A stretch of DNA of 64,000 nt from an uncultured Bacilli bacterium (GCA_947626515.1 CANQSL010000001.1:35527-99526); one strand, 5' to 3'. Shown: positions 8,521-35,899, numbered from the stretch's first letter. The notes: a model not told the origin generated them from the letters alone. Program-made: numbers and translations.

Positions 8521-8572
8521 ACATATATTTCCTTTCAATTTTATTATACATTATTCTTTATTACTAAATTTT

Positions 8573-8606: not shown

Positions 8607-8608
8607 AT

Positions 8609-10273: not shown

Positions 10274-10404
10274 ACTACAATTACCTACCTTAATTATAGT
10301 TAATCATACTAAAAAAAAAATTACAATAAATTTGTAATTTCAAAGAAAAAAATATGTAAACTTTTTAACAATTTAAAAAGACATAAAAATAGAATCAAAT
10401 ATTG

Positions 10405-11577
10405 TTAATTTAGTCTTAAATATTTTATATCATCCATTTTAAGCGTTTGCCTTTTATCTATTATTTCTAAACATTTATTAATCCTTTCAATTAAACTTGG
10501 TAGTGGCAATTCTCCCTTTATACATTTAAGCATTTCAAATATTCTTCTCTCAGCTAAATTTACTGATTCCATATTAAAGTCAGAATTATCAAAACTAATG
10601 ATTTTTTCACTTAAATTTTTTGTTATTTTTGCTTGTGCAGAATTAGCAAAATCAGAAACAATCATTTCTCCACTATTATTCATTTGTGAAGTCAACAACA
10701 AAGTATTTGCAGTTTCCAATAATATTGGATTACTAGTCAAATCAACTTTAACTCCTTTTCTTGAATAAAAGTTAGCACGAATACCTTTTTTTCTACTAAC
10801 ATCAAGTCGATATGTACCATTAACTTTACCATTTTTCTTATGAGTTTCTATTAAAATTGAACCAACTTCTAAATTATCGTTTGAATTCAAAGATGCTTCA
10901 AAAGATACTGAAGCATTGTTTTGACTATCACTTTTGTCATACTCCTTTACGATTTTTACTAAACGCATTCCTGTATTTAAATCTCGAATTATCTCAATAT
11001 CATTAAACTTTTCTATTAATATATTATTTTTAAATGATACTTTAAAATAATCGTTTTTATATCTTTGCTTTAAATCACTAGTCAATCGACTATTTATAAT
11101 TGATATATCAAAATCATTCGATAATATATCAAATGTTATATCATAAGTAATTCTTGTTGGATGTTGCATAGTTTGTTTTTGACCAATTTTGTCAGATTTA
11201 GAAAACTTAATAATACCATTATTATTAAAAGAAAAAGCTCTTGCAGATTTACGTGAATTCATATCAATCCAGTCAATTCGTCCAAACTCACATTCATATT
11301 TCTTACCACAATCATCTTCTAATATTACTCTTCTAAGTGGCAAGCCGTTTCTCTTTTCTGGATAATATACATTTTCCAACTTATATTGATCATAATATTT
11401 TTTTTCAATATCTTGAACAACATATCTTTCTGTATTATATAAAGGTATACTATATGCATCTAAGCATTGTTCCCACCAAGAAGCATTCCAAGCACCAACA
11501 AATTCTTCTACTTTTTGCATTTCATCTAATACTTTTTCAACAGCAATTAATTGAGTTTCTTCATCTAAATTTTCCAT
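10405..11577 (-). CDS. Hypothetical protein (about 390 aa), no recognisable domain
   Basis: Long ORF. The ATG (MENLDEE) is preceded by a GGGGGA RBS. The track start at 11595 is an upstream TTG. Confidence 0.4.
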   Translation of the reverse strand: MENLDEETQLIAVEKVLDEMQKVEEFVGAWNASWWEQCLDAYSIPLYNTERYVVQDIEKKYYDQYKLENVYYPEKRNGLPLRRVILEDDCGKKYECEFGRIDWIDMNSRKSARAFSFNNNGIIKFSKSDKIGQKQTMQHPTRITYDITFDILSNDFDISIINSRLTSDLKQRYKNDYFKVSFKNNILIEKFNDIEIIRDLNTGMRLVKIVKEYDKSDSQNNASVSFEASLNSNDNLEVGSILIETHKKNGKVNGTYRLDVSRKKGIRANFYSRKGVKVDLTSNPILLETANTLLLTSQMNNSGEMIVSDFANSAQAKITKNLSEKIISFDNSDFNMESVNLAERRIFEMLKCIKGELPLPSLIERINKCLEIIDKRQTLKMDDIKYLRLN

Positions 11578-11895
11578 ATATATTCCCCCTATCAAAAAAA
11601 TTTTTATATGCTTAAAATTATAATTTTTTTGTTGTTTTTTTCTCCTCTTCTATTAGAATTTCCTCTACTTTAGTTCCAACCAATATTTGAACTTTATTAC
11701 ATTTAGTACAAACTCTTTTAGCATACATTTGAGGACCAACAATTTTTACATCATCTGTAAATATAGTTTCTTCATATTCTGAAGGAATACCATAACTTCT
11801 AATCCAAAGACTATATTCATGATCGCATTTATTTATCCGACTTTTATTTCACGTCTAAAGTAATTATAAAGAAAGAAAAAAATAATGTCAATTTT

Positions 11896-12873: not shown

Positions 12874-13713
12874 TTAAATATATTTAATATTATCTATAAT
12901 TGTTAAATTAGGCATTCTTTTAATAAGTGTTTTCTTTAACTCTGTTTTTTCTTTACCAAAATGAGCAAAAGGGTGATTACTTTCATCTACAAAACTTTCA
13001 CTAGTTAAGCCAAAATCTTCTAATAATAAATCATGAATTCGTCTTGTTATTTCTATTTCTCTTTTATCTTCATCACTTAATTCTTTTTTACTATCCAATT
13101 GTTTAAATCGTTCTTCGTATTCTTGTATTTTTCTTGCATGATCGAATTCCCAAGTTGTACCAGGCCCACCTACAATACCAGGACGAGATGGATACGGATT
13201 TCGTTGATCATATAATCTCTCTAATATTCTCATTACTCTATCTAATTCGGCTTCTCTCAATTCTTTACTTTCAAATGTTTGAAATAATGAAACATCCCCA
13301 ATATTCAATGTCTTAAAACCACTTGGAACTTTAGGAGTATTCCAACCACTAGAATGAATTTCTTTGTAATCAAAATCAAATAATTCTACGCTTCTATCAC
13401 TTAATTCAGTTGATACACTCAACCTTTCCAATACATCATTATTTCCAGATAAAATGAATTTATCATTTTGTTGATTAAATAAGTTTTGAACTCTATTGTA
13501 GATGTTATAAATTGCTATTTTTTTATATACTTCTAATTCAGCAAGTGCCTTTCTATCAGAATCACTAATATACTCTCTTATAACAGAAAATTCTAATTCT
13601 ATTAAAGAATTCAAATAATTTAGCATAGGTTCTGTAAGTATTCCTCTATATTCTTTTAAAGATTCTAATAATTCTTCTTTTGTTTTTATTCTATTTGTAG
13701 TTATAAATTCCAT
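12874..13713 (-). CDS. Hypothetical protein (about 279 aa) with locally elevated GC
   Basis: ORF with GGGAGGA RBS before the ATG (MEFITT). Segments such as ccaggcccacctacaataccaggacgagatgg are far more GC-rich than the window average. Confidence 0.4.
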   Translation of the reverse strand: MEFITTNRIKTKEELLESLKEYRGILTEPMLNYLNSLIELEFSVIREYISDSDRKALAELEVYKKIAIYNIYNRVQNLFNQQNDKFILSGNNDVLERLSVSTELSDRSVELFDFDYKEIHSSGWNTPKVPSGFKTLNIGDVSLFQTFESKELREAELDRVMRILERLYDQRNPYPSRPGIVGGPGTTWEFDHARKIQEYEERFKQLDSKKELSDEDKREIEITRRIHDLLLEDFGLTSESFVDESNHPFAHFGKEKTELKKTLIKRMPNLTIIDNIKYI

Positions 13714-13901
13714 CAATTATCCTCCCGATTACTATATATTATAGCATTCATATTTTTTGATGTAAATTAAAAAAGTTTTAATAATATTGCAAAAATAAAA
13801 AGAAAAAAGGAAGAGCATTAATCTCTCCCAAAATATAGATAATCAAACTAAAAGTTTGTTTAATACCACTATGGTGCCCTAAAGGAAGAAGTACAACAAC
13901 T

Positions 13902-15103: not shown

Positions 15104-15406
15104 TTAATCATCAACTATTTTTATTATTAATTCACCATTCTTAGTATATAAATATTTTTCTCTTGCATACTTTGCAGCATAATTTGGATCTTGCAATTTA
15201 ACAACATCTGATTCTAATATTTCCTTCTCAGATAATAAATTATTATATTTTTCTTCTAACTCTTTTTTAATTTTCTTATTAGCTAAAATTTGATTCCAAT
15301 AATTAAAGGTAATATAACCCATATATCCTATCAAACAAACAAATACTAAAAATAAAACAAACATTCTTCTCTTAGCAAACTTATTTTTTTTCATATTTGT
15401 CACCAT
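15104..15406 (-). CDS. divIC: Septum-formation initiator DivIC/FtsB-family protein
   Basis: N-terminal TM plus coiled-coil (LEEKYNNLLSEKEILESDVVKLQD). Lies in the conserved yabP-yabQ-divIC arrangement. Confidence 0.65.
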   Translation of the reverse strand: MVTNMKKNKFAKRRMFVLFLVFVCLIGYMGYITFNYWNQILANKKIKKELEEKYNNLLSEKEILESDVVKLQDPNYAAKYAREKYLYTKNGELIIKIVDD

Positions 15407-15441
15407 AATAAATATAGCATAAAATTTTTAATAATCAATAT

Positions 15442-15663
15442 TTATTTATATATAAATATGTAAATAAATGTAAATATGATAATTAAATAATTATAATAAT
15501 TAAATACGCCTAAAAAGAAAATATAATATAAATAAAAATATATAATAAATAAAATTAATAATATAAAAGATTTATATATATTTTTTATTTTTAATCTTTT
15601 TAAAATATAAAAAAATATTATCCAATAAAATAAGGTTAAACATATATTAATAAGATTTTTCAT
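15442..15663 (-). CDS. yabQ: YabQ-like spore-cortex membrane protein (short)
   Basis: Small polytopic ORF overlapping the yabP stop, conserved position. Confidence 0.4.
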   Translation of the reverse strand: MKNLINICLTLFYWIIFFYILKRLKIKNIYKSFILLILFIIYFYLYYIFFLGVFNYYNYLIIIFTFIYIFIYK

Positions 15664-15947
15664 TTAAATAATTTGCTAAAGAATCCTTGTTCTTTGTCTC
15701 CATCAATACCTTCCAAATATTGAACATTATTTATTTTGCCTTTTATGCAAATATTTCCTTCATTAGTATCCAATTTAATAAGTTCCAATCCACTACCTTT
15801 TATCAAAATATTGCCCATAACAGATTGAATTGAAAATTCATTTTCGTTAAAACTATTTACCTTTTTTGTGCCAGTAATAAATATATTACTTCTCTCTAAG
15901 ATTTTAACACTATGACTTATTACATTACTATCAAAATTTGATTCCAT
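15660..15947 (-). CDS. yabP: Sporulation protein YabP
   Basis: YabP-family sequence (FITGTKKVNSFNENEFSIQSVMGNILIKGSGL) in conserved position upstream of yabQ. Confidence 0.7.
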   Translation of the reverse strand: MESNFDSNVISHSVKILERSNIFITGTKKVNSFNENEFSIQSVMGNILIKGSGLELIKLDTNEGNICIKGKINNVQYLEGIDGDKEQGFFSKLFK

Positions 15948-15989
15948 ATAATCACCTACATAATTATATGCAATTAAAAAAATTATATT

Positions 15990-16009
15990 AAAAAAACCAC
16001 AATGTGGTT
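15990..16009 (-). terminator. Weak hairpin plus T-run after spoVG
   Basis: CCAC-aat-GTGG followed by a 6-7 T run on the - strand. Confidence 0.3.
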
Positions 16010-16286
16010 ATTCTTCAACAGTTTCTTCTGCTTTATTATATTCTTCGATTATAGCATCTTCAAACATTTTTCTTGCATCAGAATTAATTGGATGAGCTAT
16101 ATCTCTATAATCTCCAGTTGCTGTTTTTCTACTTGGCATTGCTATAAACAATCCATTATCACCTTCGATAATTCTTATATCATGAACTGCAAAAGAATCA
16201 TCGATTAAAACAGATGCTTTTCCTTTCATTCTAGAGCCTTCTTTTTCAACTTTTTTTACATTTACTGATGTTATTTTCATTAACAT
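16008..16286 (-). CDS. spoVG: Septation protein SpoVG
   Basis: High similarity to SpoVG (VHDIRIIEGDNGLFIAMPSRKT...DIAHPINSDAR). GAAAGGAG RBS before MLMKITS, whereas the track start at 16352 is upstream. Confidence 0.85.
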   Translation of the reverse strand: MLMKITSVNVKKVEKEGSRMKGKASVLIDDSFAVHDIRIIEGDNGLFIAMPSRKTATGDYRDIAHPINSDARKMFEDAIIEEYNKAEETVEE

Positions 16287-16357
16287 GCACACTCCTTTCA
16301 AGTTACTTTTGAACTCTATAACCATTGTAAACCAATTTATCAATAAAATCAATACTT

Positions 16358-17131
16358 TTATCTTGGATATCCCACATACATCATTCCATTTGATTTAAGC
16401 CCACCTATTCCATCTTTACCATACTTTGTTTTATTTAACAAATTTAATAAATTTATCTCTTTATTTTTTTCCGTTAAAGCTATATTTACCGCTATTATGG
16501 CAGGATCTAAAGCGTGTATATTTATTCTTTTAGGGCTTGATGCAAAATTTGCACCTGATTTAATTAAAGCCTCATAATCGCTTTGGCAAGCTCCTGCAAT
16601 TATAACCAACTTTTCATGGCTTTTTTCATATTCTCTTGCTGCATAAACTGCATTAACAAAATTTTTAGAATTTTTATAATTATTTATATTTGATTTATCA
16701 CTATTTTTATATATTGAATCATGCCCTGTAATTATTAAAATATCTGGATTATATTTTTTCAATAATTTGACAATATTAGTAGGAATTTCACTTTCTTTTA
16801 TGTGTTCTCCTATAGCAAAAACGTTTGCTTTGTTATAGAAACTCAAACATCTTGATAGATAATCTTTATCTCCATCTATATGTAGTATTTTGGCTGGTAA
16901 ATAAAAATATTCATTTCTATCTAAATTATCTCTTTCTACTATCTTTTCTAAAAGAGTATCGTCTTCATTTTTATATTTACATAATAATAAATCATCTTTT
17001 AAAGAATCAGCATATAATCTTATATCAACTCCCTTTAATATATATAGGGTTTCATTTATATCAATAATTTTAAATATTGTATCGTTATTATAACTTTTTC
17101 TTGTAACATAATCACCTATTTTAAAATTCAT
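16358..17131 (-). CDS. yabG: Sporulation-specific protease YabG
   Basis: YabG-family N-terminus (MNFKIGDYVTRKSYNNDTIFKI) and conserved neighbourhood (ksgA...yabG...spoVG). Confidence 0.7.
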   Translation of the reverse strand: MNFKIGDYVTRKSYNNDTIFKIIDINETLYILKGVDIRLYADSLKDDLLLCKYKNEDDTLLEKIVERDNLDRNEYFYLPAKILHIDGDKDYLSRCLSFYNKANVFAIGEHIKESEIPTNIVKLLKKYNPDILIITGHDSIYKNSDKSNINNYKNSKNFVNAVYAAREYEKSHEKLVIIAGACQSDYEALIKSGANFASSPKRINIHALDPAIIAVNIALTEKNKEINLLNLLNKTKYGKDGIGGLKSNGMMYVGYPR

Positions 17132-17175
17132 TATATCACCATTTAATTATATTATTTAACTTGAAAATAATACTA

Positions 17176-18672
17176 TTAAACGCAGAATTTGTTAACTCTA
17201 TTCATATTAACTTTAAAAATAATATATGTTTCTTTTGGAGAATATTCACTCTGATATACAAAAGACAAATATCCATTATTTATTATTTCCCAATAAGAGT
17301 TACATCCACCGCCACTACAAAGTAAATAAATATTTTTATCCTTTATAAATTTAGTGGAAACTAAATTTTTTATTTTATTTCCATAAAATGTCTTATATTC
17401 ATAATTCCAACTAACATATGAAAATTCATCATCTATATCAAGTCCATAAAAATATAAATTTTTAGAATCATCAATATATGGTAAAATTGCAGCAGTATTC
17501 GGCATATTTTGTGCTAATATAATGCTATTATCCTCTAAATAGTAATTAATAAAATCTGCTGTTTCATGTGAACTTGAAAATAATGAATTATAATCTGATT
17601 TCATCATTTCATATATCCCATTTGAATACATAATTACTAAACATAAAGCTACAATTCCCATAATTCCCCCATATATTCTTTTAAACCAACTTCTCTTATT
17701 TTTTTCTCTTTGTATCCAAAAAATAAACATAAATATAAATATTAAAGAATCAGTTCTTTGTTGGGAAATTGCATATATATAATGATAAACATATATTTGG
17801 AACAAAATACTTAAGTATAATATTGGCATATTCTTTCTATAAAATATAGTCTCATATAATATAAAAAGTGTAAGCAATACTAATAGTGCAATATTATAGC
17901 CCAAATCACCATGACCAAAAACATAATAAGCTATATTACTTGTCCAATAAAATACATCTACTTTTCTATCTAAATGTACTAAATTGTTTTTGGCACCGCC
18001 AAGACCAATTGGAATAACAAATAATAGTAACCCCACAATAGCAAGAATTAAACAAAATAATATTTTCTTTTTTTCTGATTTTGTATTTGTTTTTCTTCTA
18101 GTTATAACTTCATTCCAAAAGAATTGTAAGTATAGAATTCCAACCATACCAAGCATTATTATATGAGTCCATGCTAACATTAAAATTGATAACACATATG
18201 GTAAAGGTTTTTCATGCCTATTTTTATAATTTATCGCAATTAATGTAATGGCTAAAGGTATTAAACAATAATTTCTTGCTATAGCAGAATATGTGTACAT
18301 AAATGGAGAAGAAAAAATTATTACCAATTTTGTAAACATATTAAATGGAGCCTTTTTTAAAATTAAAAGTGCTGTAAACCACATAATTAAATAACTTATT
18401 AAATTCATTGTAAAATATGGAAATCCTAATTTTGCAAACGGTGATAAAATTAAACTCCATAAACAAGGATGCGCCTCATAATACATTTGTTTTATCATTC
18501 CAAAAATGCTTAAATCCCTGCCTATTAACCAAGCTTGTGCCTCGTCTCGCCAAGGTTCATGAGTATTTAAATATTTCATACTAATCATAGTATAAATAGA
18601 AAGAATTAATATATTAAATTTATTTTTCCAAATTATATTCCATATTTTTTTTAGATAATTCATAAATACCAC
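17176..18672 (-). CDS. Polytopic membrane protein, putative GT-C-fold glycosyltransferase (ArnT/PMT-like)
   Basis: About 12 predicted TM helices. Early loop motif HEPWRDEAQAW resembles the DE-containing first loop of GT-C transferases. Last gene of a three-gene operon. Confidence 0.4.
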   Translation of the reverse strand: MVFMNYLKKIWNIIWKNKFNILILSIYTMISMKYLNTHEPWRDEAQAWLIGRDLSIFGMIKQMYYEAHPCLWSLILSPFAKLGFPYFTMNLISYLIMWFTALLILKKAPFNMFTKLVIIFSSPFMYTYSAIARNYCLIPLAITLIAINYKNRHEKPLPYVLSILMLAWTHIIMLGMVGILYLQFFWNEVITRRKTNTKSEKKKILFCLILAIVGLLLFVIPIGLGGAKNNLVHLDRKVDVFYWTSNIAYYVFGHGDLGYNIALLVLLTLFILYETIFYRKNMPILYLSILFQIYVYHYIYAISQQRTDSLIFIFMFIFWIQREKNKRSWFKRIYGGIMGIVALCLVIMYSNGIYEMMKSDYNSLFSSSHETADFINYYLEDNSIILAQNMPNTAAILPYIDDSKNLYFYGLDIDDEFSYVSWNYEYKTFYGNKIKNLVSTKFIKDKNIYLLCSGGGCNSYWEIINNGYLSFVYQSEYSPKETYIIFKVNMNRVNKFCV

Positions 18673-18703
18673 CTATAATGCATAAAAAAAGATTATTTTT
18701 ATA

Positions 18704-20284
18704 TTATTTGCTTTTTTCTTCGTGATAATCTTTTTCTGTATTTACATTCCATATTTCTTTTTTATCAGATGACTTATTATTAATAATATTCTTAGCTGTC
18801 TCTATACCAGTTAGCATAGAATGATCCATGTTATTATATCTATGTTGTCCGTTTCTTCCAACGCAATATAAATTATTAAATTTATTTAAATAATCAATAA
18901 CTTTATCTATTTTTGAATACGTTCCAAAATATGCTGGATAAGCTTTTGGAATTTTAATTCTAATTGATTTTTCTACAACATCTTTGCTACTAATTATTTT
19001 TAACTTTAAGGCTTCTTCAATAGAAAAGTTTATGAATTCTTCGTCTGACATATTCCAATATTCATCTTTTTCGCTACAAAAATATTCTAATGTAAATAAG
19101 ACTTTATTTTTAATTTCTTCTTTACTTTTAAATAAGTATGGAGACCAATTATTAAAAATCTGAATTCTTCCCATTTTAACATCAGGTTCTTGAACATATA
19201 TCCATGAGTCTGGAATAATATTATTTAGTGTTTTTACATTTGTAGTATTTTCTAAATATAGTTTATCTACTAATAATCCTACTGACATAAATTCTCTATA
19301 AGGAAGTTTTGTTGCTATATTATAAATATTCTTAGGAATATCTATTCCTTTTGCATTTTCAAATAAATATTTTATTGGCATTGACGAAACACAGATATCG
19401 GTCTTAATACGAATTTTCTCATTATCTTTAAGGTATGTAACATTAGATATTTTATTTCCTTTAAATTTAATTTCCTTTACATCAGCATTAAGAATTATTT
19501 CTCCACCCATTTCTTTTATTTTATTTGCCATTTCTTCATATACTTGTCCAGAACCCAATTTAGGATATATAAATTGTTCTATTAAAGAAGTTTCTGTATT
19601 TTTATTGTCTTTCTTTTTAAATAATCGTTTAAACATATCTTTAATAACGGCTGTTATTGATAACCCTTTAACTCTTTGTGAGCCCCAATCTGCTGAGATT
19701 TTACTTGGATGAATTCCCCAAACTTTTTCTGTATAACTTTCAAAAAACATACTATATAATACTTTCCCAAATCTATTAATATAAAAGTTTTCCAAACTTG
19801 TTTCAGGCAATTTATGAATACAAGACTTTAAATAACTAAATCCTGCCTTCATCAAAGTAAAAAAACCCATATTTTTTATTGTAGTCATATTTAAACTAAC
19901 TGGATAATCATAAAACTTTCTTCCATAAAAAATTCTTGTAATTCTATTTTTTATAAGCATTGTTTTATCTTCTTTTTCTGGATCTGGACCACCTTCAACG
20001 TATGGTTTATCAACATTTAATAACTTATCGTCGTAAGCGGGTTTCCCCTGCAATGGCAAACAATCAAGCCATATCTTTTCTACCTCATCATTTTTTGTAA
20101 AAAATCTATGTATACCTGTATCTATTTTATATCCATCAAATTCAACTGTTTTAGAAATTCCTCCAATAATACTGTCTTTTTCTAAAATTGTTACATTATA
20201 TTTATCACTATTTTTTAATAAATAATATGCCGTTGTCAATCCTGCCGGACCGGCACCAACTATTATTACATTTTTTTTATTCAT
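18704..20284 (-). CDS. FAD-dependent oxidoreductase, UDP-galactopyranose-mutase-like
   Basis: N-terminal Rossmann motif VIIVGAGPAGLTTAY. Segments GGISKT...DTGIHRFF and FFESYTEKVWGIHPSKIS parallel Glf (GGNSYD...GPHIFH, FFKGYTIKQWGMQPSELP). Confidence 0.55.
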   Translation of the reverse strand: MNKKNVIIVGAGPAGLTTAYYLLKNSDKYNVTILEKDSIIGGISKTVEFDGYKIDTGIHRFFTKNDEVEKIWLDCLPLQGKPAYDDKLLNVDKPYVEGGPDPEKEDKTMLIKNRITRIFYGRKFYDYPVSLNMTTIKNMGFFTLMKAGFSYLKSCIHKLPETSLENFYINRFGKVLYSMFFESYTEKVWGIHPSKISADWGSQRVKGLSITAVIKDMFKRLFKKKDNKNTETSLIEQFIYPKLGSGQVYEEMANKIKEMGGEIILNADVKEIKFKGNKISNVTYLKDNEKIRIKTDICVSSMPIKYLFENAKGIDIPKNIYNIATKLPYREFMSVGLLVDKLYLENTTNVKTLNNIIPDSWIYVQEPDVKMGRIQIFNNWSPYLFKSKEEIKNKVLFTLEYFCSEKDEYWNMSDEEFINFSIEEALKLKIISSKDVVEKSIRIKIPKAYPAYFGTYSKIDKVIDYLNKFNNLYCVGRNGQHRYNNMDHSMLTGIETAKNIINNKSSDKKEIWNVNTEKDYHEEKSK

Positions 20285-21342
20285 AACTTCATTCCTTTAC
20301 TACTTTTATTTATACAAAAACTTATCGAATCCATTCCATATACTTCTTTAATATAACTTTCTAATGTATTTTGAGTTTTTGCATTTTCACATACTAATAA
20401 CAAACTTCCATCCCCTCCTGAACCTATACTTTTTCCTCCATATGTTAGACATTGAACGAATCCATCACTTAATAATAAGTGCAAAGCAGGAGCTTTAAAT
20501 TCTTTACAAGCTACTTTTGCTTTATCCAAAAGAAGCTGCGCTTCACTTAAACATTTGCCAAATATCTTTAAATCACCTAACTCCAAACAAGAAATAGCTT
20601 TTTCAACCAATTCAACATTTTTATTTCCAATTATATCTAATAATAATTTATCTTTTTCTTTTTTTGCAATAGGCAATGCCCTATTAAAAGAACTCATGAT
20701 TATTCTAGTATCTTTATTGCTGTTTAAATCTACAATTAAGACATATAAATCTTTTTCTAATAATACTGGTGTAGAAACAACATTTTCTTCATAAAATGTT
20801 AAACTTGAACAGTTATTATTCATTATGCTATTTTGATCTAATTTTCCACATTTTGAACCAGCTAAATGTTCTCCATAGTAAGCTATATTTTTTAAATCAT
20901 CATCTGATAAATTTAACTCATACAAACTGTTGTATGCCTTGGCAACTGTTAAACATATTGCCGCAGATGATGAAAGCCCTTTTTTAATAGGTAAATCCAT
21001 CTTTGTAATAAAAATATGTATTCCACCAATCTTATATCCACTATTTTTAAGATATAATACTGTTCCACAAATGTATGCTACAAAACTGCCTTTTTCTATT
21101 TCACTTTTTAATTTTTCCTCTATTAAATCAACCTCAAAATATATATCTTTAAACTCATATATTAATTTATTACTTTTTTTTGATTTTGAATAAATACCTT
21201 TATCAATTGTGCAGGCAATTGCTCTTCCAGGAGGTAATTCAGGATTTTGACTTAAATAAGGACTAACAAGGTCGCTTAATTCTCCTATTAAGCCGATTCT
21301 TCCTGGAACAAATAATTCTATTTCTTCTATATCAACCACCAC
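20281..21342 (-). CDS. GHMP-family sugar kinase (not IspE)
   Basis: N-terminal VPGRIGLIGE (galactokinase/GHMP motif 1) and PIKKGLSSSAAICLT (GHMP ATP-binding motif). 4-nt ATGA overlap with the downstream flavoprotein gene. Confidence 0.6.
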   Translation of the reverse strand: MVVDIEEIELFVPGRIGLIGELSDLVSPYLSQNPELPPGRAIACTIDKGIYSKSKKSNKLIYEFKDIYFEVDLIEEKLKSEIEKGSFVAYICGTVLYLKNSGYKIGGIHIFITKMDLPIKKGLSSSAAICLTVAKAYNSLYELNLSDDDLKNIAYYGEHLAGSKCGKLDQNSIMNNNCSSLTFYEENVVSTPVLLEKDLYVLIVDLNSNKDTRIIMSSFNRALPIAKKEKDKLLLDIIGNKNVELVEKAISCLELGDLKIFGKCLSEAQLLLDKAKVACKEFKAPALHLLLSDGFVQCLTYGGKSIGSGGDGSLLLVCENAKTQNTLESYIKEVYGMDSISFCINKSSKGMKL

Positions 21343-21396
21343 CTAACTACTACCATAAATAAATTATAACAAAAAAAAAGAAAAAATTATATAAAA

Positions 21397-22188
21397 TTAT
21401 GACAATTTATTAGCTATTTCTACAAAAATCTCATATTTTATATCTTCAGCTCTATCATTAAGTGATAAAGAATACTTTTTTAATATTCCATCTATAATAT
21501 TCAAATCATAATTTTTTAAATTATTTCTTAAATTTTTTCTTTTAAATTTAAATGAATCAGTTATTAATTTTCTAAAAACAAAAAAATCCTTTACATATAA
21601 TAAATTTTGTTTTTTTCTAAATTTTATTAAAGCACTATCAACCTTTGGAATAGGATAAAAACATTTCTTATCTACAAAAGATAAATATTCTATATCAAAA
21701 TAATAATTCAAATAAACTGTAATAGCACCATATTCTTTTGTAGAAGGTTTAGAGCATAGTCTTTTACCTAATTCATTTTGTACCATAATTATTGAAATAT
21801 CTGGAATTGTTTCACTTTCTATAAATTTTTGCAATATTGGAGTTGAAATATAATAAGGTATATTAGCTATAAAATAAATGTGATTATATCCTTTTAAATA
21901 TTCTTTTAAATTTACACTTAAAAAATCTTCATACACTATTTCTAACTTTGGATTATTAATTTTTTCAAGAATTGGAGCCAAAGTCTTATCAATCTCAAAA
22001 GACAAAACTTTTATATTTTTCTCTAATAATCTTTTAGTTAAAATACCAGATCCTGCTCCCACTTCCACTATTATTCCATCATTTGCTACTTCAAAATTAT
22101 TTATTATAGTATTTAAAACCTCAGTATCTTGCAAAAAATTTTGTCCAAAACGCTTTTTATAATTTATTTTTTCCACTATTACCTCCAT
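21397..22188 (-). CDS. rsmA: 16S rRNA (adenine1518/1519-N6)-dimethyltransferase
   Basis: FGQNFLQD and VEVGAGSGILT motifs. Confidence 0.85.
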   Translation of the reverse strand: MEVIVEKINYKKRFGQNFLQDTEVLNTIINNFEVANDGIIVEVGAGSGILTKRLLEKNIKVLSFEIDKTLAPILEKINNPKLEIVYEDFLSVNLKEYLKGYNHIYFIANIPYYISTPILQKFIESETIPDISIIMVQNELGKRLCSKPSTKEYGAITVYLNYYFDIEYLSFVDKKCFYPIPKVDSALIKFRKKQNLLYVKDFFVFRKLITDSFKFKRKNLRNNLKNYDLNIIDGILKKYSLSLNDRAEDIKYEIFVEIANKLS

Positions 22189-22206
22189 TAAAAAATCAAG
22201 ATGTTT

Positions 22207-22728
22207 CTATCTTGACCATCCAAATCGTAAGATATCATAACTAATATATTTCCTGCCTATATTCTTAAATGCATACTCTTCATCACTGACTAATAAATCT
22301 AAATTAGTTCCTGTAACACCTCTATCTAAAACTATTGCTGTAACTGTATTATCATTTAGTTTATATCTAACTATACTGCCACAAGCTAAATTAGTTGATG
22401 ATGCAACAATTCCTACTGTACCATAATCGTTATCAAAATAAGTCGTTGTTCCGTCAAGCACATTTTGACCAGTACATCCCAATGTTCCTCCACATAAAGG
22501 ACAATCAGCAGCATAACCAGTTAAATATCCAACATATGTATCTAAAGGATAATTTAAATCTTGTAATTTAATCTGCTCTATCTTATAAGCCATTGCAGTT
22601 AAATCTAATACTTTATTTGTATTGTCATTCAATACTATCCCATTATCTTTTTCAATATTTACTTTAGTGATACAAACCATTGCAACAATAATAATCATAA
22701 ATTTTACTATTTTTCCAACTATTTTCAA
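22207..22728 (-). CDS. 3D-domain (MltA-like) cell-wall protein, YabE-like
   Basis: N-terminal TM/signal sequence. C-terminal 3D-domain-like segment (AADCPLCGG...IVLDRGV) in the conserved position between tatD and ksgA. Confidence 0.5.
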   Translation of the reverse strand: MKIVGKIVKFMIIIVAMVCITKVNIEKDNGIVLNDNTNKVLDLTAMAYKIEQIKLQDLNYPLDTYVGYLTGYAADCPLCGGTLGCTGQNVLDGTTTYFDNDYGTVGIVASSTNLACGSIVRYKLNDNTVTAIVLDRGVTGTNLDLLVSDEEYAFKNIGRKYISYDILRFGWSR

Positions 22729-22804
22729 TTTATCACCTTCATAGTTATAAATATAACATTATATTGTAGTTTTGTCAAAAATATACCAACAATTGGTATT
22801 TTTA

Positions 22805-23557
22805 CTAATTAAATATAGTTTTTAGATTTTCAATGCTTTTATTTATAATTATATTTCTATCAATATCCAAATAATTAGATACATAATCAATAATTTCATT
22901 TATATGTAAAGGACTATTTTTTTCTCCTCTATAAGGAACAGGAGTAAGATAAGGACTATCTGTTTCAAATACTACATTATCTACTCCAATTTGTTTATAA
23001 ACTTCTATTAATTTACAATTCTTAAAAGTGATAACACCATTAATTCCCAATTTAAAACCCATTTTAATATATTCTTTTGCAGTTTCTACACTACCATTAA
23101 AACAGTGTATTATCCCTTTAACTTTATATAATTTTAATATATCTATAACATCTTTTGTTGATTCTCTTGAATGAATTATTACTGGCAAATTATATTTTTC
23201 AGCCAATTTTAGTTGAGCTTTAAATAGTTCTTTTTGTTGTTCTTTATTGAAATCTTCATAATGATAATCTAATCCAATTTCTCCTATACCTAAAAATTTA
23301 TTATTATTTAAATTTTGTTCTATTAATTTTGTGACATCACTTAGTTCTTTATAATCTGATTCAGGATGAACTCCCAACACAAAATACATATTTTCATATA
23401 ATTTAGATAATTTTATAATCTCTAATGAACTTTTATACCCTACTGCATTATTTATCACAAAAATATTTGACTTTTTTAAACTATTCATCAATTCAGAAAT
23501 ATTATCATAATATTCACTATAAATATGACAATGACTATCTATGATCATATATATCAC
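22805..23557 (-). CDS. tatD: TatD-family metal-dependent DNase (YabD)
   Basis: IIDSHCHIY and GEIGLDYHY motifs. Confidence 0.85.
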   Translation of the reverse strand: MIYMIIDSHCHIYSEYYDNISELMNSLKKSNIFVINNAVGYKSSLEIIKLSKLYENMYFVLGVHPESDYKELSDVTKLIEQNLNNNKFLGIGEIGLDYHYEDFNKEQQKELFKAQLKLAEKYNLPVIIHSRESTKDVIDILKLYKVKGIIHCFNGSVETAKEYIKMGFKLGINGVITFKNCKLIEVYKQIGVDNVVFETDSPYLTPVPYRGEKNSPLHINEIIDYVSNYLDIDRNIIINKSIENLKTIFN

Positions 23558-23602
23558 TCCAAAATTATTATAACTTAAAAAACAGCATATTTCTATGCTA
23601 TT

Positions 23603-24088
23603 TCATTCCATTAAACTAATTATAATATTTTTAATTAAAGATACTATTTCATTATCGACTAAATTATTATTACTAATAATAAACATAAATCCTACTGTAT
23701 TACTATCAACAATTAATGGTATATTAGATAAATAACAAGATATATACTTTTCTTCAAATAAAATTCCTTCAAACTTTCCATTATTAATATTTTCTATTTT
23801 AGGTTTTACTAAATCTTTATAACAATAATTTTCACTTGTTGAACTTATTATTTTCATTTTATCTAATATAACAATATCAAAATCTATAATTTTTTTTGCT
23901 AATTTTAATATATTATCTATATTAGTTTTATAAGATTCTATACCTATACTTTTTTTTATAATTATTGATTCATTATCCATATATAATTCTAATTCATCAA
24001 AATTCTTTACTTTAAAACTATCTCTTATTTCTTTTGGTATAACAATTCTTCCAAGTTCATCAATTCTTTTTTTAAACACATAACTCAA
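23603..24088 (-). CDS. spoVT: SpoVT/AbrB-family transcriptional regulator (SpoVT-like)
   Basis: AbrB swapped-hairpin N-terminus (RIDELGRIVIPKEIR) plus a C-terminal domain of about 110 aa. Directly downstream of mfd, as in Bacillus. Confidence 0.6.
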   Translation of the reverse strand: MSYVFKKRIDELGRIVIPKEIRDSFKVKNFDELELYMDNESIIIKKSIGIESYKTNIDNILKLAKKIIDFDIVILDKMKIISSTSENYCYKDLVKPKIENINNGKFEGILFEEKYISCYLSNIPLIVDSNTVGFMFIISNNNLVDNEIVSLIKNIIISLME

Positions 24089-24122
24089 AGGATATCACCA
24101 ATAATAGTATGTTTACATTTCA

Positions 24123-27100
24123 CTATTTTATGCAATCTTTTATTAATAAAATTAGGTCCAATAAATCTTTTACATAATCACCTTTTCTATTAATTATATT
24201 TAATGATATAATTAGTCTTTTTCTTACGTATTTTAATTTAAATTTCGGATTTATATTATATATTTGTAAAAATAATTTTTCGCCATCTAATTTACTTGAT
24301 ATTTCTTCAGAAAATTCTATTTCAACAAAATTATTTAGATACCTTATATTTTCAATTTTTAAACTATTAGATTCATATTGGAACCACTCTTCATACATAT
24401 AATTTATAATATCACTGCTAATTTTCCCAAATCTATCCTCTATTTCGTTTTTTATTCTATTAAAACTTTCTTCAGAATTAATTTCATTTATAAGTTTATG
24501 AATTTCTATTCTAAGTGATTCATCATCTACATATTCCTTTGATATCGAAGTACTTACTTCTAATAAAGGCTTTTCACTATCGTTTTTTTCTTCTACTTGA
24601 TTACCTTTCAATTTATTTATTTCATCGTTAATCATATCCATATATAAATCAATTCCAACAGCTTCTATAAAACCTGATTGACTACTACCCAATAGTTCTC
24701 CTGCTCCCCTTATTGATAAATCTCTCATTGCAACTTTGTAGCCACTTCCAAGTTCAGTAAATTCTTTTATTGTTTTCAATCTCTTAATTGCAATGTCATT
24801 TAAGAATTTTGTTTTATCATACATCATATATGCATAAGCTATTCTATCGCTTCTTCCAACTCTACCTCTTATTTGATATAGTTGGCTAAGGCCAAATATA
24901 TCCGCATTTTTTATTATCAATGTGTTTACATTTGGAATATCTATACCAGTTTCTATTATAGTCGTACAAATTAATACATTATATTTTCCATCTACAAAAT
25001 CTTCTATAATTCCATTTAAAGTGTCTTTTTCCATTTTTCCATATGCTATACAAGGTTTAGACTCTGGAACTAACCTACAAATCAAATCATACTCATTTTG
25101 TAGTTGTTCTATATTATTATTAAGTAAATAGACTTGTCCATCTCTAGAAAGTTCTTTATATATAGCTTCTTTTAATAAATAATTATTATCCTCTATTACG
25201 TAAGTTTGAACTGGATATCTATTTACTGGAGGAGTATCTATTATTGATAGATCTTTCACTCCACTCATAGACATCTTTAAAGTTCTAGGAATCGGAGTAG
25301 CTGATAATGTAAGTATATTTACATTTTTCTTTAAACTTTTTAATTTTTCTTTTTGCGCTACACCAAATCGTTGTTCTTCGTCTATAATCAAAAGTCCTAA
25401 ATGTTTATATTTAATTGTCTCATTAAATAATTTGTGAGTCCCAATTACTATATCAACTGTTCCTTTTTCCAATTTATCCTTTATTTGATTAAATTCTTTA
25501 ATTGATGTAAATCTATTTAAAAGTTCTATATTTACTCCAAAATGTCTAAATCTTTTTTTACAAGCTTCATATTGTTGCTTAGATAAAATTGTCGTTGGAC
25601 ACAAATATACAACTTGTCTATTATTTAACACTGTTCTAAACATAGCTCTCATAGCTACTTCAGTCTTTCCAAATCCAACATCCCCACAAAGAAGTCTATC
25701 CATAGGTTTCTTTTGTGATAAATCATCAAGTATTTCTTTTATACATTTTGATTGATCTTTTGTCTCTGTATATTCAAATTCATTAGCAAAAATCTCTTCT
25801 TCTGGAAATGATAAATATCTTTCTCCTTCTTCAAGCTCTCTTTCAGCATATAATTTTATTAAATCTTCTGAAATATCTTTTATCTTGTTTCTTACTTTAT
25901 ATTTTGTTTTCTCCCAACTTGTTCCTCCCAAAACAGATAGTTTAGGTACATTTATGTCTTCATCACTGTATTTATAAATTGTCTCTATTTTTTGAGCAGG
26001 TATATAAAGCTTATCTTTTCCTGCATATTTAATTAATAAATAATCTTTTTTAATACCTTTATTTTCTAATGTAACTAAACCTTGATATTGCCCAATTCCA
26101 TGGGAAATATGAACTACGTAATCTCCTTGTTTAAGATCCTCAAAACCTTTTATTTTTCTTCCTATATTATAATGATTTAAAAAAGATACACTTCTTTTTG
26201 CATTTTCAATATCATATTCTGATATAACTATATAATTTTCAAATATAAATCCTTTTGATATACCTTTTTTAAATAAATTTACTCTATTTGGCAAATAAGT
26301 ATTAAAAGAAATTAAATTTCCAAATAATGATAATATTTTTTTTATTAGTATTTCATTTTCAATCATAAAAATAATAATATTTCTATTTATTTGATCATTT
26401 ATATAAATCTTTAAGTTATTAAAATTATTATTAAAATTAACTATATCTCTAGATTGATATTTTTTTACTTTTTTATCTATAGCATTATCAACCAAAGTAT
26501 TTATATATATTTTATTTTTGATTTTATCTATATTAAAAATATCAAAATAATTATTATCAATTAATTTAAATTCTTCTTTAGAATTCTTAAATTCATTATA
26601 TGAAGATAATATTTTATCATAATCAATTAAAAAAACTTGAGGATTATTCAATCTATTATATATAATCTCTTTAGTATTATTTTTATTTGTATCATTAAAA
26701 CTATATATAACGACTTCATCTAAGCTTTCTTTCGAAATTTGAGTTTCCAAATCAAAGATTCTTATAGATTCTAAATCAGACCCAAAAAATTCCAATCTAA
26801 TTGGATTGTCATAATTAATAGAAAATAGATCTATAATAAAGCTTCTAACTGCATATTCTCCCGTAGATGTAACTAAATTCGTCTTGTTATAAGAATTATC
26901 CTCTAGAAATTGAATTATATCTTCTCTTTTTATATTTTTATTAATAGTTAATGTATTTGGCTTACTATCAATATATTTTAAATATCCAGTTAAATTAGTA
27001 ACTATTATTTTTTTTGCACTATCTATTTTATTTAATGTATCTATCCTTGCAATTTTTAAATCCGGTGAAGATGATATTGCAAGCACGGTTGCAAATTCAT

Positions 27101-27314
27101 CCATTGGAAATAACAATACATTGGGATTCATTTGAGATAAGTCCTTAAATATCAAATTGGCATTATATAAAGACTCTGTTACCACCAAAACATTTTTTTC
27201 ATTATTTAAAAAATAATTCAAAATATATTCATTAATAAGAGATGAAGTTAGGCCACTAATAGTTATATTATCTTCATATATAAAGTAATCTTTAAACATA
27301 ATATCACATTCCAT
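24123..27314 (-). CDS. mfd: Transcription-repair coupling factor
   Basis: Walker A GDVGFGKTEVAMRA and the DEEQRFGV motif. Conserved pth-mfd order. Confidence 0.9.
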   Translation of the reverse strand: MECDIMFKDYFIYEDNITISGLTSSLINEYILNYFLNNEKNVLVVTESLYNANLIFKDLSQMNPNVLLFPMDEFATVLAISSSPDLKIARIDTLNKIDSAKKIIVTNLTGYLKYIDSKPNTLTINKNIKREDIIQFLEDNSYNKTNLVTSTGEYAVRSFIIDLFSINYDNPIRLEFFGSDLESIRIFDLETQISKESLDEVVIYSFNDTNKNNTKEIIYNRLNNPQVFLIDYDKILSSYNEFKNSKEEFKLIDNNYFDIFNIDKIKNKIYINTLVDNAIDKKVKKYQSRDIVNFNNNFNNLKIYINDQINRNIIIFMIENEILIKKILSLFGNLISFNTYLPNRVNLFKKGISKGFIFENYIVISEYDIENAKRSVSFLNHYNIGRKIKGFEDLKQGDYVVHISHGIGQYQGLVTLENKGIKKDYLLIKYAGKDKLYIPAQKIETIYKYSDEDINVPKLSVLGGTSWEKTKYKVRNKIKDISEDLIKLYAERELEEGERYLSFPEEEIFANEFEYTETKDQSKCIKEILDDLSQKKPMDRLLCGDVGFGKTEVAMRAMFRTVLNNRQVVYLCPTTILSKQQYEACKKRFRHFGVNIELLNRFTSIKEFNQIKDKLEKGTVDIVIGTHKLFNETIKYKHLGLLIIDEEQRFGVAQKEKLKSLKKNVNILTLSATPIPRTLKMSMSGVKDLSIIDTPPVNRYPVQTYVIEDNNYLLKEAIYKELSRDGQVYLLNNNIEQLQNEYDLICRLVPESKPCIAYGKMEKDTLNGIIEDFVDGKYNVLICTTIIETGIDIPNVNTLIIKNADIFGLSQLYQIRGRVGRSDRIAYAYMMYDKTKFLNDIAIKRLKTIKEFTELGSGYKVAMRDLSIRGAGELLGSSQSGFIEAVGIDLYMDMINDEINKLKGNQVEEKNDSEKPLLEVSTSISKEYVDDESLRIEIHKLINEINSEESFNRIKNEIEDRFGKISSDIINYMYEEWFQYESNSLKIENIRYLNNFVEIEFSEEISSKLDGEKLFLQIYNINPKFKLKYVRKRLIISLNIINRKGDYVKDLLDLILLIKDCIK

Positions 27315-33426: not shown

Positions 33427-33428
33427 AA

Positions 33429-35891: not shown

Positions 35892-35899
35892 AATACCTC

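Follow-up and report, generated by a model that had tools for sequence, protein, structure and literature searches.

The window, that is, the whole stretch of 64,000 nucleotides that was analysed, contains a cassette of 3 co-directional genes with ksgA (21397-22188) on one side and yabG (16358-17131) on the other. The following features were identified:

20281-21342, minus strand: GHMP kinase gene (353 amino acids as listed), a GHMP-family anomeric sugar kinase, galactokinase-like
18704-20284, minus strand: UGM-like FAD flavoprotein gene (526 amino acids), a predicted UDP-sugar pyranose/furanose mutase, NCBIfam PRK07208
17176-18663, minus strand: GT-C membrane protein gene (495 amino acids from ATG 18663), encoding a polytopic protein with a C-terminal alpha/beta domain
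20281-20284, minus strand: ATGA stop/start overlap of the kinase and flavoprotein genes, read from the sequence
18664-18703, minus strand: spacer of 40 nt between the flavoprotein and GT-C genes, with a Shine-Dalgarno sequence, AGGTGG, at 18669-18674
21343-21396, minus strand: spacer of 54 nt between ksgA and the kinase gene, with a TGnTATAAT-like extended -10 sequence at 21363-21371

The 3 ORFs described in the sequence-only reading were recovered on the minus strand (20281-21342, 18704-20284, and 17176-18672), and all of the motifs quoted there were located in the 3 proteins. Homologues number in the hundreds to thousands for each protein, and the ORFs are therefore considered to be real genes rather than chance ORFs. 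The GC content of the cassette (0.23 to 0.28) was the same as that of the flanks. The host is a low-GC, spore-forming gut bacterium.

The ORF finder placed the start of the GT-C gene at GTG 18672, giving 498 amino acids. The most likely start, judged from the position of the AGGTGG sequence at 18669-18674, is ATG 18663, and the resulting 495 amino acids correspond to the length of a GT-C homologue of 99% identity (P0001). The GT-C gene does not overlap the flavoprotein gene and, with this start, is separated from its stop codon by 40 nt. The 3 genes had been described as translationally coupled, which holds for the ATGA overlap of the kinase and flavoprotein genes but not for the membrane protein gene. 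The sequence AAAGGAA precedes the ATG of the flavoprotein gene by about 10 nt, and a terminator scan found none in the 18664-18703 spacer. The kinase gene may start at GTG 21342 or 21339; alternatively, it may start at ATA 21330, which is fitted by an AGGTGG sequence at 21339-21344 and would give the N-terminus MEEIELFVPGR, as in the homologue P0145. A promoter scan returned 48 promoters compared to 56.7 expected from shuffling, and since it performed no better than on shuffled sequence, the extended -10 sequence upstream of the kinase gene is regarded as a possible promoter element. It had also been suggested that the cassette replaces the genes that follow ksgA in Bacillus-type genomes. None of veg, sspF, ispE, purR, and yabJ was found between yabG and spoVG, which are 5 nt apart in the window, but yabG itself is still there and was not replaced.

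The first protein matched PF00288 in Pfam (E 1.5e-13), its best NCBIfam matches were galactokinase models (82 bits against an equivalog cut-off of 443), and the closest solved structure was the Pyrococcus galactokinase 1s4e (E 4.6e-14). No match to IspE was obtained in the Pfam and NCBIfam profile searches, in line with the earlier assignment as a galactokinase-like GHMP kinase distinct from IspE. The motifs PGRIGLIGELSDL and PIKKGLSSSAAICLT correspond to residues 13-25 and 118-132, the phosphate-binding loop GLSSSAA to residues 122-128, and CGKLDQ, with the catalytic Asp of CGxxDQ, to residues 165-170. Compared to the galactose-binding signature GRxNLIGEHxDY, the Arg, Glu, and Asp residues are kept in PGRIGLIGELSDL whereas His and Tyr are both replaced by Leu, such that the kinase reads GELSDL where galactokinase has GEHxDY. 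The subfamily of kinases linked to the flavoprotein has GE(L/I/V)SDL at this position. Galactose is the most likely substrate, although the loss of the His and Tyr residues means that this is not assured, and L-arabinose, D-fucose, or GalNAc may be used instead.

The second protein matched NF005546 in NCBIfam with 707 bits (cut-off 418), a family for which the annotation library gives only the name "hypothetical protein" (PRK07208). Pfam identified only the Amino_oxidase and NAD_binding_8 domains, with no match to GLF at E <= 0.01, and TIGR00031 (UDP-GALP_mutase) scored 35.3 bits against a cut-off of 303.75, over an N-terminal segment only. The top matches in PDB were UDP-galactopyranose mutases (UGMs) in searches with the sequence (E 1.8e-13) as well as with a profile (E 3e-20 over residues 112-506), at an identity of about 18%, and the sequence beyond the N-terminal Rossmann segment (residues 1-75) matched UGMs only. 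A Foldseek search of PDB with the AF2 model (pLDDT 85.8) returned UGMs as the top 34 matches (TcUGM/AfUGM, TM 0.7-0.8, E 5e-29), after which protoporphyrinogen oxidases were ranked (E about 1e-24, TM 0.65).

The motifs GGISKT, GIHRFF, and YTEKVWGIHPSKIS are all present in the flavoprotein, as is the FAD-binding GxGxxG motif (GAGPAG, residues 10-15). A table of 20 active-site positions in eukaryotic and prokaryotic UGMs, Trp167 among them, is available for the residues that bind UDP and position the sugar (PMC3322874), and the flavoprotein has the eukaryotic or the prokaryotic residue at 18 of these, namely H59, F62, R114, F180, F181, Y184, T185, W189, and R204 in the first half and W361, Y363, R373, E400, Y449, R477, Y483, N485, and M486 in the second. 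The 2 essential arginines and the residues surrounding the uridine are among these positions, all of which show little or no variation across the flavoprotein family. The 2 mismatches, L234/I235 at the equivalents of Pro206/Asn207, are located in a loop modelled with low confidence. Based on the sequence comparisons and the model, the flavoprotein is a relative of UGM and a predicted UDP-pyranose/furanose mutase, as the sequence-only reading had proposed; UGMs, rather than generic amine oxidases or phytoene desaturases, were the best matches by sequence, profile, and fold.

Searches with the third protein in Pfam (PMT_2, YfhO, DUF2142, and others) and against PDB sequences gave no match, and NCBIfam gave only a match of 15.9 bits to LA_3751/3752. 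Pfam matches among 40 relatives were weak and scattered (DUF6541 in 6, DUF6056 in 4, and EpsG in 4), and the family comprises 6,147 clusters at 50% identity. The AF2 model (pLDDT 92, pTM 0.91) had GT-C proteins as its top 13 Foldseek matches in PDB (probability 1.0, TM 0.40-0.51), including DPY19, STT3, ALG12, AftA, PglB, and ALG3. The motif HEPWRDEAQAW, with the family form HExWRDEAQ, begins at residue 38 in the first outer loop after TM1; among the 40 homologues, H38 and E44 are invariant and E39, W41, R42, and D43 nearly so, with E39 and D43 conserved in at least 90%. The loop charges, read against the AF2 helices, fit an orientation with the N-terminus inside and the HExWRDE loop and C-terminal domain outside, marked by a Lys-rich N-terminus and by alternate loops rich in Lys or Arg. 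We confidently model this protein as a GT-C-fold glycosyltransferase of a family without a Pfam model. The structure prediction, with its GT-C fold and acidic first outer loop, thereby bears out the earlier suggestion of a GT-C-like transferase over a non-glycosyltransferase membrane family. Our literature search found no paper on, and no measured activity for any member of, either this family or the flavoprotein family.

We consider it fairly probable that the cassette provides a salvage-fed supply of a UDP-furanose, probably Galf, for extracytoplasmic glycosylation; the identity of the sugar, the lipid donor, and the acceptor are those that we infer. By homology, the GHMP kinase would phosphorylate a free sugar at C1, and a uridylyltransferase would convert the product to a UDP-sugar, the pyranose ring of which would be contracted by the flavoprotein, given its conserved active site, to yield the UDP-furanose. 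Undecaprenyl phosphate would then receive the furanose from a GtrB-like GT2 protein, and the lipid-linked furanose would be flipped by a GtrA-type protein. Finally, the GT-C protein would, as its fold and motif suggest, employ the acidic D43/E44 outer loop in passing the furanose on to an acceptor outside the membrane. This acceptor may be a teichoic acid, a wall polysaccharide, or a surface protein. Together, the steps would represent Gtr-type multi-component transmembrane glycosylation that is dedicated to a hexofuranose and has a sugar-supply branch of its own. If UDP-Galf is loaded onto undecaprenyl phosphate, this would imply that the galactofuranose donor is lipid-linked and that galactofuranosylation takes place outside the cytoplasm; descriptions of an undecaprenyl-phosphate-linked galactofuranose donor or of extracytoplasmic galactofuranosylation were not found in the literature searched. 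No nucleotidyltransferase gene, which had already been noted as missing locally, and no GT2 or GtrA homologue was found anywhere in the 64-kb window, and 3 of the 5 proposed steps thus rest on genes unseen there.

To place the cassette in a broader context, we used 80 species-level loci centred on the GT-C gene and 64 metagenome loci centred on the flavoprotein gene. The complete trio was also identified in L001, L009, and L010. The flavoprotein gene was located within 10 kb of the GT-C gene in 24 of the 80 loci, mostly directly adjacent and on the same strand, and overlapped or abutted it in many; the pair was also present in Cloacimonadota and Omnitrophota MAGs. In one MAG (L022), the 2 proteins were fused in an uninterrupted, in-frame product of 1018 amino acids. 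Fusions of the kinase to the flavoprotein were found on other contigs (P0145 and P0255), and in L091 such a fusion was followed by an overlapping NTP_transferase gene. Two GT-C paralogues, the flavoprotein, the kinase, and an NTP_transferase were encoded in a row in L172, and an NTP_transferase, a membrane protein, the flavoprotein, and the kinase in L173. The trio is thus not confined to the window, and relatives carry the nucleotidyltransferase gene in their cassettes.

It is unlikely that these genes serve no single pathway, such that the kinase and mutase feed an unlinked cytoplasmic Leloir glycosyltransferase while the membrane protein, as an unrelated GT-C protein or a Wzy/EpsG-like polymerase, uses another donor and the genes are together merely by operon packing. 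Such an arrangement would agree with the absence of the flavoprotein gene within 10 kb in 56 of the 80 GT-C loci, with arrays of the same GT-C family behind GT2-GtrA but without the flavoprotein in Gastranaerophilales, and with the weak matches of a few family members to EpsG or DUF6056; to our knowledge, every characterised bacterial galactofuranosyltransferase uses cytoplasmic UDP-Galf. Against this stand the adjacency in 24 of the 80 species loci over several phyla, the in-frame fusion, and the repeated pairing of the flavoprotein with GtrA and various GT-C-like families. The recurrence of the pairing, the fusion, and the variety of partners argue for a functional tie to the GT-C class and make chance packing unlikely.

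GT2 genes were present in 22 and GtrA genes in 9 of the 80 GT-C loci, which indirectly supports the use of a polyprenyl-phosphate-linked sugar donor by the GT-C family. Of the 64 flavoprotein loci, 15 encoded GtrA immediately upstream of the flavoprotein and 30 a large polytopic protein next to it, the partners including PMT_2, GtrII, DUF6044, DUF6020, and the cassette's own GT-C family. GT2 genes were located inside the cassette in only 6 of the 64, which speaks against the route proposed above, and the flavoprotein fills the usual GtrB slot in gtrA-X-gtr(type)-like cassettes. These 2 observations, together with the many overlaps and the direct fusion to the cytoplasmic N-terminus of the GT-C protein in L022, could be taken to mean that the flavoprotein acts on a lipid-linked sugar rather than on a UDP-sugar. 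A housekeeping GT2 would make undecaprenyl-phosphate-galactopyranose, and the flavoprotein, docked on the GT-C protein at the inner side of the membrane, would turn this lipid-linked sugar into a furanose, by analogy with the remodelling of decaprenyl-phosphate-ribose by DprE1/DprE2 for GT-C arabinosyltransferases. We consider this quite improbable, and equally doubtful the extension by which the PRK07208 flavoproteins form an undescribed hexofuranose branch, with a mutase in complex with the GT-C protein that isomerises undecaprenyl-phosphate-Galp to -Galf and replaces GtrB. The uridine and diphosphate contacts are kept (F180/F181, Y184, T185, W189, R204, R373, Y449, and Y483), no precedent enzyme was found, and the kinase and UDP-sugar-type nucleotidyltransferase genes fused to or located beside the flavoprotein gene fit a soluble UDP-sugar substrate. 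Very improbable is a redox enzyme of the protoporphyrinogen oxidase, amine oxidase, or phytoene desaturase type that acts on another substrate without mutase activity, as might be read from the Pfam domains, the second rank of protoporphyrinogen oxidases in the fold search, and the label of one homologue as protoporphyrinogen oxidase in one source, given that only UGMs match past residue 75 and as the top 34 folds, that the His loop, pair of arginines, and tyrosines specific to UGMs do not vary, and that the gene context is one of sugar activation and glycosyl transfer.

We therefore retain the UDP-furanose supply as the preferred reading, without the spore-envelope target that had been suggested from the yabG and spoVG neighbours. 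The cassette has unrelated surroundings in both L001 and L009, and the flavoprotein/GT-C pair extends to the Cloacimonadota and Omnitrophota MAGs; a spore-specific role is unsupported.

Like galactokinases and sugar-1-kinase salvage enzymes, the kinase has the GHMP fold, the PGRxxLIGE motif, the GLSSSAA loop, and the Asp of CGxLDQ, and its paralogues (35% to 43% identity) are fused to PF00483, as in salvage enzymes that combine kinase and nucleotidyltransferase. The window kinase, in contrast, has no nucleotidyltransferase domain and scores far below the equivalog cut-offs. The flavoprotein shares with the UGMs of Aspergillus fumigatus and Trypanosoma cruzi the three-domain fold, a length of about 500 amino acids, the His loop, the Arg182/Arg327 pair, Tyr419/Tyr453, Trp315/Tyr317, and the YxxKxW uridine region. 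It differs in that it mixes eukaryote-like (F62, R114, W361, and Y363) with prokaryote-like residues (F181, T185, and M486), fails the Glf models (TIGR00031 and Pfam GLF), and has GtrA and GT-C proteins as genomic partners instead of cytoplasmic GlfT-type transferases.

The GtrA/GtrB/Gtr(type) systems of enterobacterial phages and the CsbB/GtcA/YfhO-type systems of Gram-positives also have a GT-C protein whose acidic loop lies on the outer face. Relatives encode members of the cassette's GT-C family behind GT2 and GtrA genes, and flavoprotein cassettes elsewhere hold GtrA and GtrII-, PMT_2-, or YfhO-like partners. Unlike these systems, the window lacks GtrA and GtrB, its GT-C protein belongs to no Pfam family, and the cassette adds a mutase and a sugar-1-kinase, implying a furanose donor. 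Three-component systems for pentofuranoses and the mycobacterial decaprenyl-phosphate-arabinose route (GtrA-like Rv3789, DprE1/DprE2, and AftA) have been described in a paper with no mention of hexofuranoses or mutases (PMC11127046). In these routes, as is proposed for the cassette, cytoplasmic chemistry that includes a flavoenzyme makes a furanose donor for a GT-C protein acting outside, with a GtrA-like gene in the locus, and AftA is among the fold matches of the cassette GT-C protein. DprE1 has a flavoprotein fold unrelated to that of the cassette flavoprotein. Furthermore, those routes begin with PRPP and form the furanose while it is attached to the lipid, whereas the furanose of the cassette would arise from ring contraction of a UDP-sugar.

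The genes for the GHMP kinase, the flavoprotein related to UDP-galactopyranose mutase (UGM) and the GT-C membrane protein, here referred to as the cassette, were found in the following gene order:

24123-27314, minus strand, mfd
23603-24088, minus strand, AbrB/SpoVT-like gene
22805-23557, minus strand, tatD
22207-22728, minus strand, gene for a 173-aa protein without Pfam match, between tatD and ksgA
21397-22188, minus strand, ksgA/rsmA, directly before the three cassette genes
20281-21342, minus strand, GHMP kinase
18704-20284, minus strand, flavoprotein of 526 aa
17176-18663, minus strand, GT-C membrane protein
16358-17131, minus strand, yabG, directly after the three cassette genes
16008-16352, minus strand, spoVG, after yabG
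after spoVG, minus strand, yabP, yabQ and divIC

This order therefore places the cassette between ksgA and yabG. The Bacillus-like block at 15104-27314 was compacted and rearranged, with mfd and the spoVT-like gene located ahead of tatD and ksgA, and with yabP, yabQ and divIC after spoVG instead of glmU and prs. The 173-aa protein, which had no match in Pfam or NCBIfam, contained a hydrophobic N-terminal segment and shared 66% identity with a protein encoded in L010, the syntenic locus. The sequence-only reading held that the cassette stands in for the veg-sspF-ispE-purR-yabJ genes of Bacillus, but these are merely absent between yabG and spoVG, which are separated by 5 nt in the window sequence, rather than replaced, and yabG itself is present.

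The motifs quoted in that reading were all recovered in the three proteins, as was the ATGA overlap at 20281-20284. However, the proposed coupling of all three genes did not extend to the third, which has no overlap and a likely start at ATG 18663, 40 nt past the flavoprotein stop codon and preceded by AGGTGG at 18669-18674, yielding a protein of 495 aa; its 99% identical homolog P0001 is also 495 aa long. The spacers flanking the cassette are short (54 nt on the ksgA side and 44 nt on the yabG side), and a terminator scan identified no convincing terminator from ksgA to the end of spoVG, so that read-through transcription is possible. Inside the cassette, the sole terminator-like site was weak and intragenic. 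The promoter scan was uninformative in the AT-rich DNA of the window (48 sites versus 56.7 expected), and the GC content of the cassette equalled that of its flanks.

Pfam scans of 30 other ORFs in the window (10 plus 20) identified no sugar-metabolism families; the matches were to housekeeping and sporulation families of the near-dnaA region, and 4 ORFs were without match. No tblastn match to nucleotidyltransferases of three kinds, to a GtrB-like GT2 or to the GtrA flippase was obtained anywhere in the window, in agreement with the claim that the nucleotidyltransferase is not encoded locally. Gene order and ORF sizes indicate that the window covers the dnaA/dnaN/recF/gyrB/gyrA region. By these features alone, gyrA, gyrB, recF, dnaN and dnaA were placed on the minus strand at 33429-42196, where the dnaA group meets the Pfam-confirmed yidC, jag and mnmE genes on the plus strand from 42981 (region about 33400-46000), and the replication origin is probably located within the window, about 20 kb from the cassette. 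It was also noted that the minus-strand stretch 7438-11595 encodes a 366-aa sortase-domain protein beside two further ORFs (554 and 396 aa) for which Pfam had no match. The products of these two may be substrates of the sortase or surface proteins of a pilus-like kind, and surface glycosylation could conceivably use them as acceptors. Another ORF of 280 aa without Pfam match, with a TTG start, was located at 12874-13716 on the minus strand, between the genes for GrpB and a class-I glutamine amidotransferase.

The kinase contained the PF00288 domain, and its top matches among the curated family models were galactokinases, far under the equivalog thresholds, with no match to IspE; the earlier assignment to the GHMP kinases but not to IspE was thus upheld. 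The closest solved structure was the Pyrococcus galactokinase. The protein retained the hallmarks of anomeric kinases, namely PGRxxLIGE, the GLSSSAA loop and the Asp of CGKLDQ, and in the galactokinase signature GEHxDY both His and Tyr were replaced (GELSDL). This replacement was typical of the whole close kinase subfamily (at least 44% identity); the distant subfamily (at most 43% identity) retained GEHSDW and held all of the fusions to PF00483 nucleotidyltransferases. Judged from these motifs, the protein is a sugar-1-kinase, with a sequence that does not name a particular sugar. A fusion of a GHMP kinase and an NTP_transferase domain (P0319, at 7144-9794 in both L007 and L008), 39% identical to the kinase in the window, was encoded on a phage-like contig with genes for DNA polymerase A, RecA, RecU and clamp-loader proteins, directly 3' of a gene for a TET-associated glycosyltransferase (PF20691). 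The arrangement looks as though the phage encodes its own supply of sugar nucleotides for glycosylating DNA bases.

Pfam assigned the flavoprotein only to the generic Amino_oxidase and NAD_binding_8 families, and it scored above the NCBIfam cut-off for NF005546 (PRK07208), which is named "hypothetical protein". We do not recover it as a generic amine oxidase or phytoene desaturase, the outcome against which the sequence-only reading had been set, as UGMs were the best solved-structure matches by single sequence (E 1.8e-13), by family profile (E 3e-20 over residues 112-506) and by fold. In the profile search, flavoproteins other than UGMs matched only the Rossmann segment at residues 1-75. The AF2 model (pLDDT 85.8) had UGMs from T. 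cruzi and A. fumigatus as its top 34 fold matches, with TM values of 0.7-0.8; protoporphyrinogen oxidases came next in the ranking, with E-values five orders of magnitude worse. A published comparison tabulates 20 active-site positions across five UGMs (PMC3322874), and these were transferred to the flavoprotein by HMMER alignments.

UGM active-site residues kept in the flavoprotein (tabulated position, followed by the position in the window protein)
Universal UGM residue: F158, F180; Y162, Y184; W167, W189; R182, R204; R327, R373; E373, E400; Y419, Y449; R447, R477; Y453, Y483; N457, N485
Eukaryotic UGM residue: H63, H59; F66, F62; R91, R114; W315, W361; Y317, Y363
Prokaryotic UGM residue: M159, F181; N163, T185; Q458, M486

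The flavoprotein agreed with the UGM residue at 18 of the 20 positions, all of which were invariant or nearly so among 39 family members, and differed only at the equivalents of P206 and N207, located in a poorly modelled loop. Because the contacts on both the uridine side and the diphosphate side are conserved, the enzyme most likely acts on a UDP-sugar.

The membrane protein had no match in Pfam or among PDB sequences, and its sole NCBIfam match, at 15.9 bits, was to a putative leptospiral glycosyltransferase family. An AF2 model built with 40 homologs (pLDDT 92, pTM 0.91) bore out the GT-C fold suggested previously, as the 13 best PDB fold matches were all GT-C enzymes (DPY19, STT3, ALG12, AftA, PglB and ALG3). 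The residues H38 and E44 were invariant among the homologs, and E39, W41, R42 and D43 were nearly so; these HExWRDE residues sit directly after the first transmembrane helix. About 11 transmembrane helices are predicted from the AF2 helices and the loop charges, several of which were missed by a crude hydropathy scan. A Lys-rich N-terminus and Lys/Arg-rich alternate loops put the N-terminus inside, and the model places the HExWRDE loop and a C-terminal alpha/beta domain (about residues 365-498) outside, as is usual for GT-C enzymes. When 1.84 billion representatives were searched with a family profile, 6,147 clusters at 50% identity were retrieved, 5,113 of them at E<=1e-10, and none of 40 members reached a convincing Pfam family; the protein therefore belongs to a large, unnamed GT-C family. 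The closest match among species representatives was 47% identical.

The three genes also co-occur in other genomes. The order tatD-173aa-ksgA-kinase-flavoprotein-GT-C-yabG-spoVG was identical in L010, with identities of 79% for YabG and 93% for SpoVG, and the trio was found in other gene contexts in L001 and L009. L010 (CAYQJD010000002.1) was deposited as an "uncultured Muribaculaceae bacterium", a Bacteroidota family, despite its yabG/spoVG synteny with the window, and seems to have been mislabelled through an error of binning or taxonomy. Among 80 GT-C-centred loci from species representatives, 24 had a family flavoprotein within 10 kb, mostly directly upstream, in taxa that include Bacilli, Clostridia, Lachnospiraceae, Oscillospiraceae, and Cloacimonadota and Omnitrophota MAGs. 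An uninterrupted ORF of 1018 aa (L022, 984-4040) joined the full flavoprotein, a Lys/Glu-rich linker and the GT-C protein from its first helix, in one MAG only, where it may be an assembly artefact. Fusions of the kinase and the flavoprotein were identified in P0145 (866 aa) and P0255. The complete cassettes of relatives contained a kinase-flavoprotein fusion followed by an overlapping nucleotidyltransferase gene (L091), two GT-C paralogs, flavoprotein, kinase, nucleotidyltransferase and integrase (L172), integrase, nucleotidyltransferase, a 671-aa polytopic protein, flavoprotein and kinase (L173), or kinase, flavoprotein, a 761-aa polytopic protein and YfhO (L174). Among the 48 kinase homologs closest to the window protein, at least 16 were tied to a flavoprotein (in 14 the longest contig equals in length that of a listed flavoprotein match, one is adjacent in L174 and one is the P0255 fusion). 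The recurrence of the trio, the linkage, the fusions and the complete cassettes support the order kinase, nucleotidyltransferase, mutase and a functional tie between the mutase and the GT-C enzymes, and we consider it unlikely that the GT-C protein is functionally unrelated to its two neighbors. Phage-type integrases flanked the cassettes in L172 (10001-10966) and L173 (2502-3533), which hints that the cassette moves as a unit.

A spore-specific role was rejected as unsupported, since the cassette is also found amid unrelated genes and beyond Bacillota, in Cloacimonadota and Omnitrophota, and nothing but the neighborhood in the window lineage supports the suggested spore-envelope target. Overall, the earlier finding was real and its interpretation largely right, save for this hint, the triple coupling and the gene replacement.

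The wider pattern was studied in 64 flavoprotein-centred metagenome loci, leaving out 16 high-GC loci in which the ORF filter kept an antisense ORF. A polytopic protein of at least 400 aa was adjacent in 30 of the 64, a GtrA-family gene was located immediately upstream in 15, and 12 had genes for GtrA, the flavoprotein and a large membrane protein in this order. The membrane partner was not always of one family: PMT_2, Glucos_trans_II (GtrII), DUF6044, DUF6020, an unnamed family of about 680 aa and the present GT-C family all occurred. The flavoprotein is a recurrent accessory of multi-component transmembrane glycosylation systems. Proteins of a second unnamed family, 670-760 aa in length, adjoined the flavoprotein repeatedly (L089 5939-7981, L173 4394-6409, L174 10651-12936); they had 13-14 hydrophobic segments, a conserved NPYD...YxWDxSYYxGxYYxYFG stretch and no Pfam match, and may constitute another GT-C-like family. 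In the 80 GT-C-centred loci, a GtrB-like GT2 was found near the present GT-C family in 22 and GtrA in 9. The Gastranaerophilales contained a GT2-GtrA pair followed by 4-9 tandem GT-C paralogs interleaved with DUF2142 proteins; such arrays were identified in Gastranaerophilales and Limenecus MAGs (L034, L046, L051, L056, L059, L061, L062, L073 and L081, the last with GT2 alone detected, without GtrA), and the flavoprotein was absent from these loci. The arrays suggest a large repertoire of outer-face glycosyltransferases with one common lipid-linked donor. The present GT-C family thus behaves as a Gtr(type) protein does, the serotype-specific part of multi-component transmembrane glycosylation systems.

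The best-supported reading of the cassette, which we hold to be rather probable, is a five-step furanose glycosylation. What the analysis demonstrates is the families to which the genes belong, the folds, the residues that are conserved, and the linkage and fusion of the genes; the chemistry of every step and the identity of sugar, lipid donor and acceptor are inferred. A free sugar would be phosphorylated at C1, the sugar-1-phosphate would be uridylylated by an enzyme not encoded in the window, and the product would be converted to the furanose by the UGM-like enzyme. A GT2 would then put the furanose onto undecaprenyl phosphate, followed by flipping, with neither gene in the window, and the GT-C protein would transfer it, via D43/E44, to an acceptor on the outer face. 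The chief weakness is that three steps need genes absent from the 64 kb. Alternatively, the flavoprotein might isomerise a lipid-linked sugar instead of a UDP-sugar, as it takes the GtrB-like position in cassettes, is fused to a GT-C protein and rarely has a local GT2 (6 of 64 flavoprotein loci); the conservation of the residues that bind uridine and the links to kinase and nucleotidyltransferase genes argue against this, and we regard it as quite improbable. That the flavoprotein is a redox enzyme is very improbable indeed.

Mammals lack furanose sugars, so that these serve as antigens and their pathways as drug targets. To our knowledge, the donor in all characterised galactofuranosyl transfer is UDP-Galf, used at the cytoplasmic or the Golgi face. 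In the literature searched, which was incomplete and may have missed work in subscription journals, no paper dealt with PRK07208 proteins, a lipid-phosphate galactofuranose donor or UGM-GtrA-GT-C cassettes. Together with its numerous relatives from gut Bacillota, the cassette points to a third, currently unannotated clade of UGM-type mutases, labelled "hypothetical protein", to a GT-C family that lacks a Pfam model and comprises some 6,000 clusters at 50% identity, and to a route for hexofuranose addition outside the membrane, which would complement the pentofuranose three-component systems reported in 2024. This is a clear annotation gap with directly testable predictions; it touches thousands of gut-microbiome proteins, and the gene fusions offer concrete, testable enzyme pairings.

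As a module, the cassette would work like the Gtr-type or CsbB/GtcA/YfhO-type systems, and in the logic of its furanose donor it resembles both the DPA pathway of mycobacteria and the three-component systems for pentofuranoses, in the account of which both hexofuranoses and mutases are unmentioned (PMC11127046). Unlike all of these, it would obtain the furanose through a UGM-type mutase acting on a UDP-sugar, carries its own salvage kinase and employs a GT-C family without a Pfam model.
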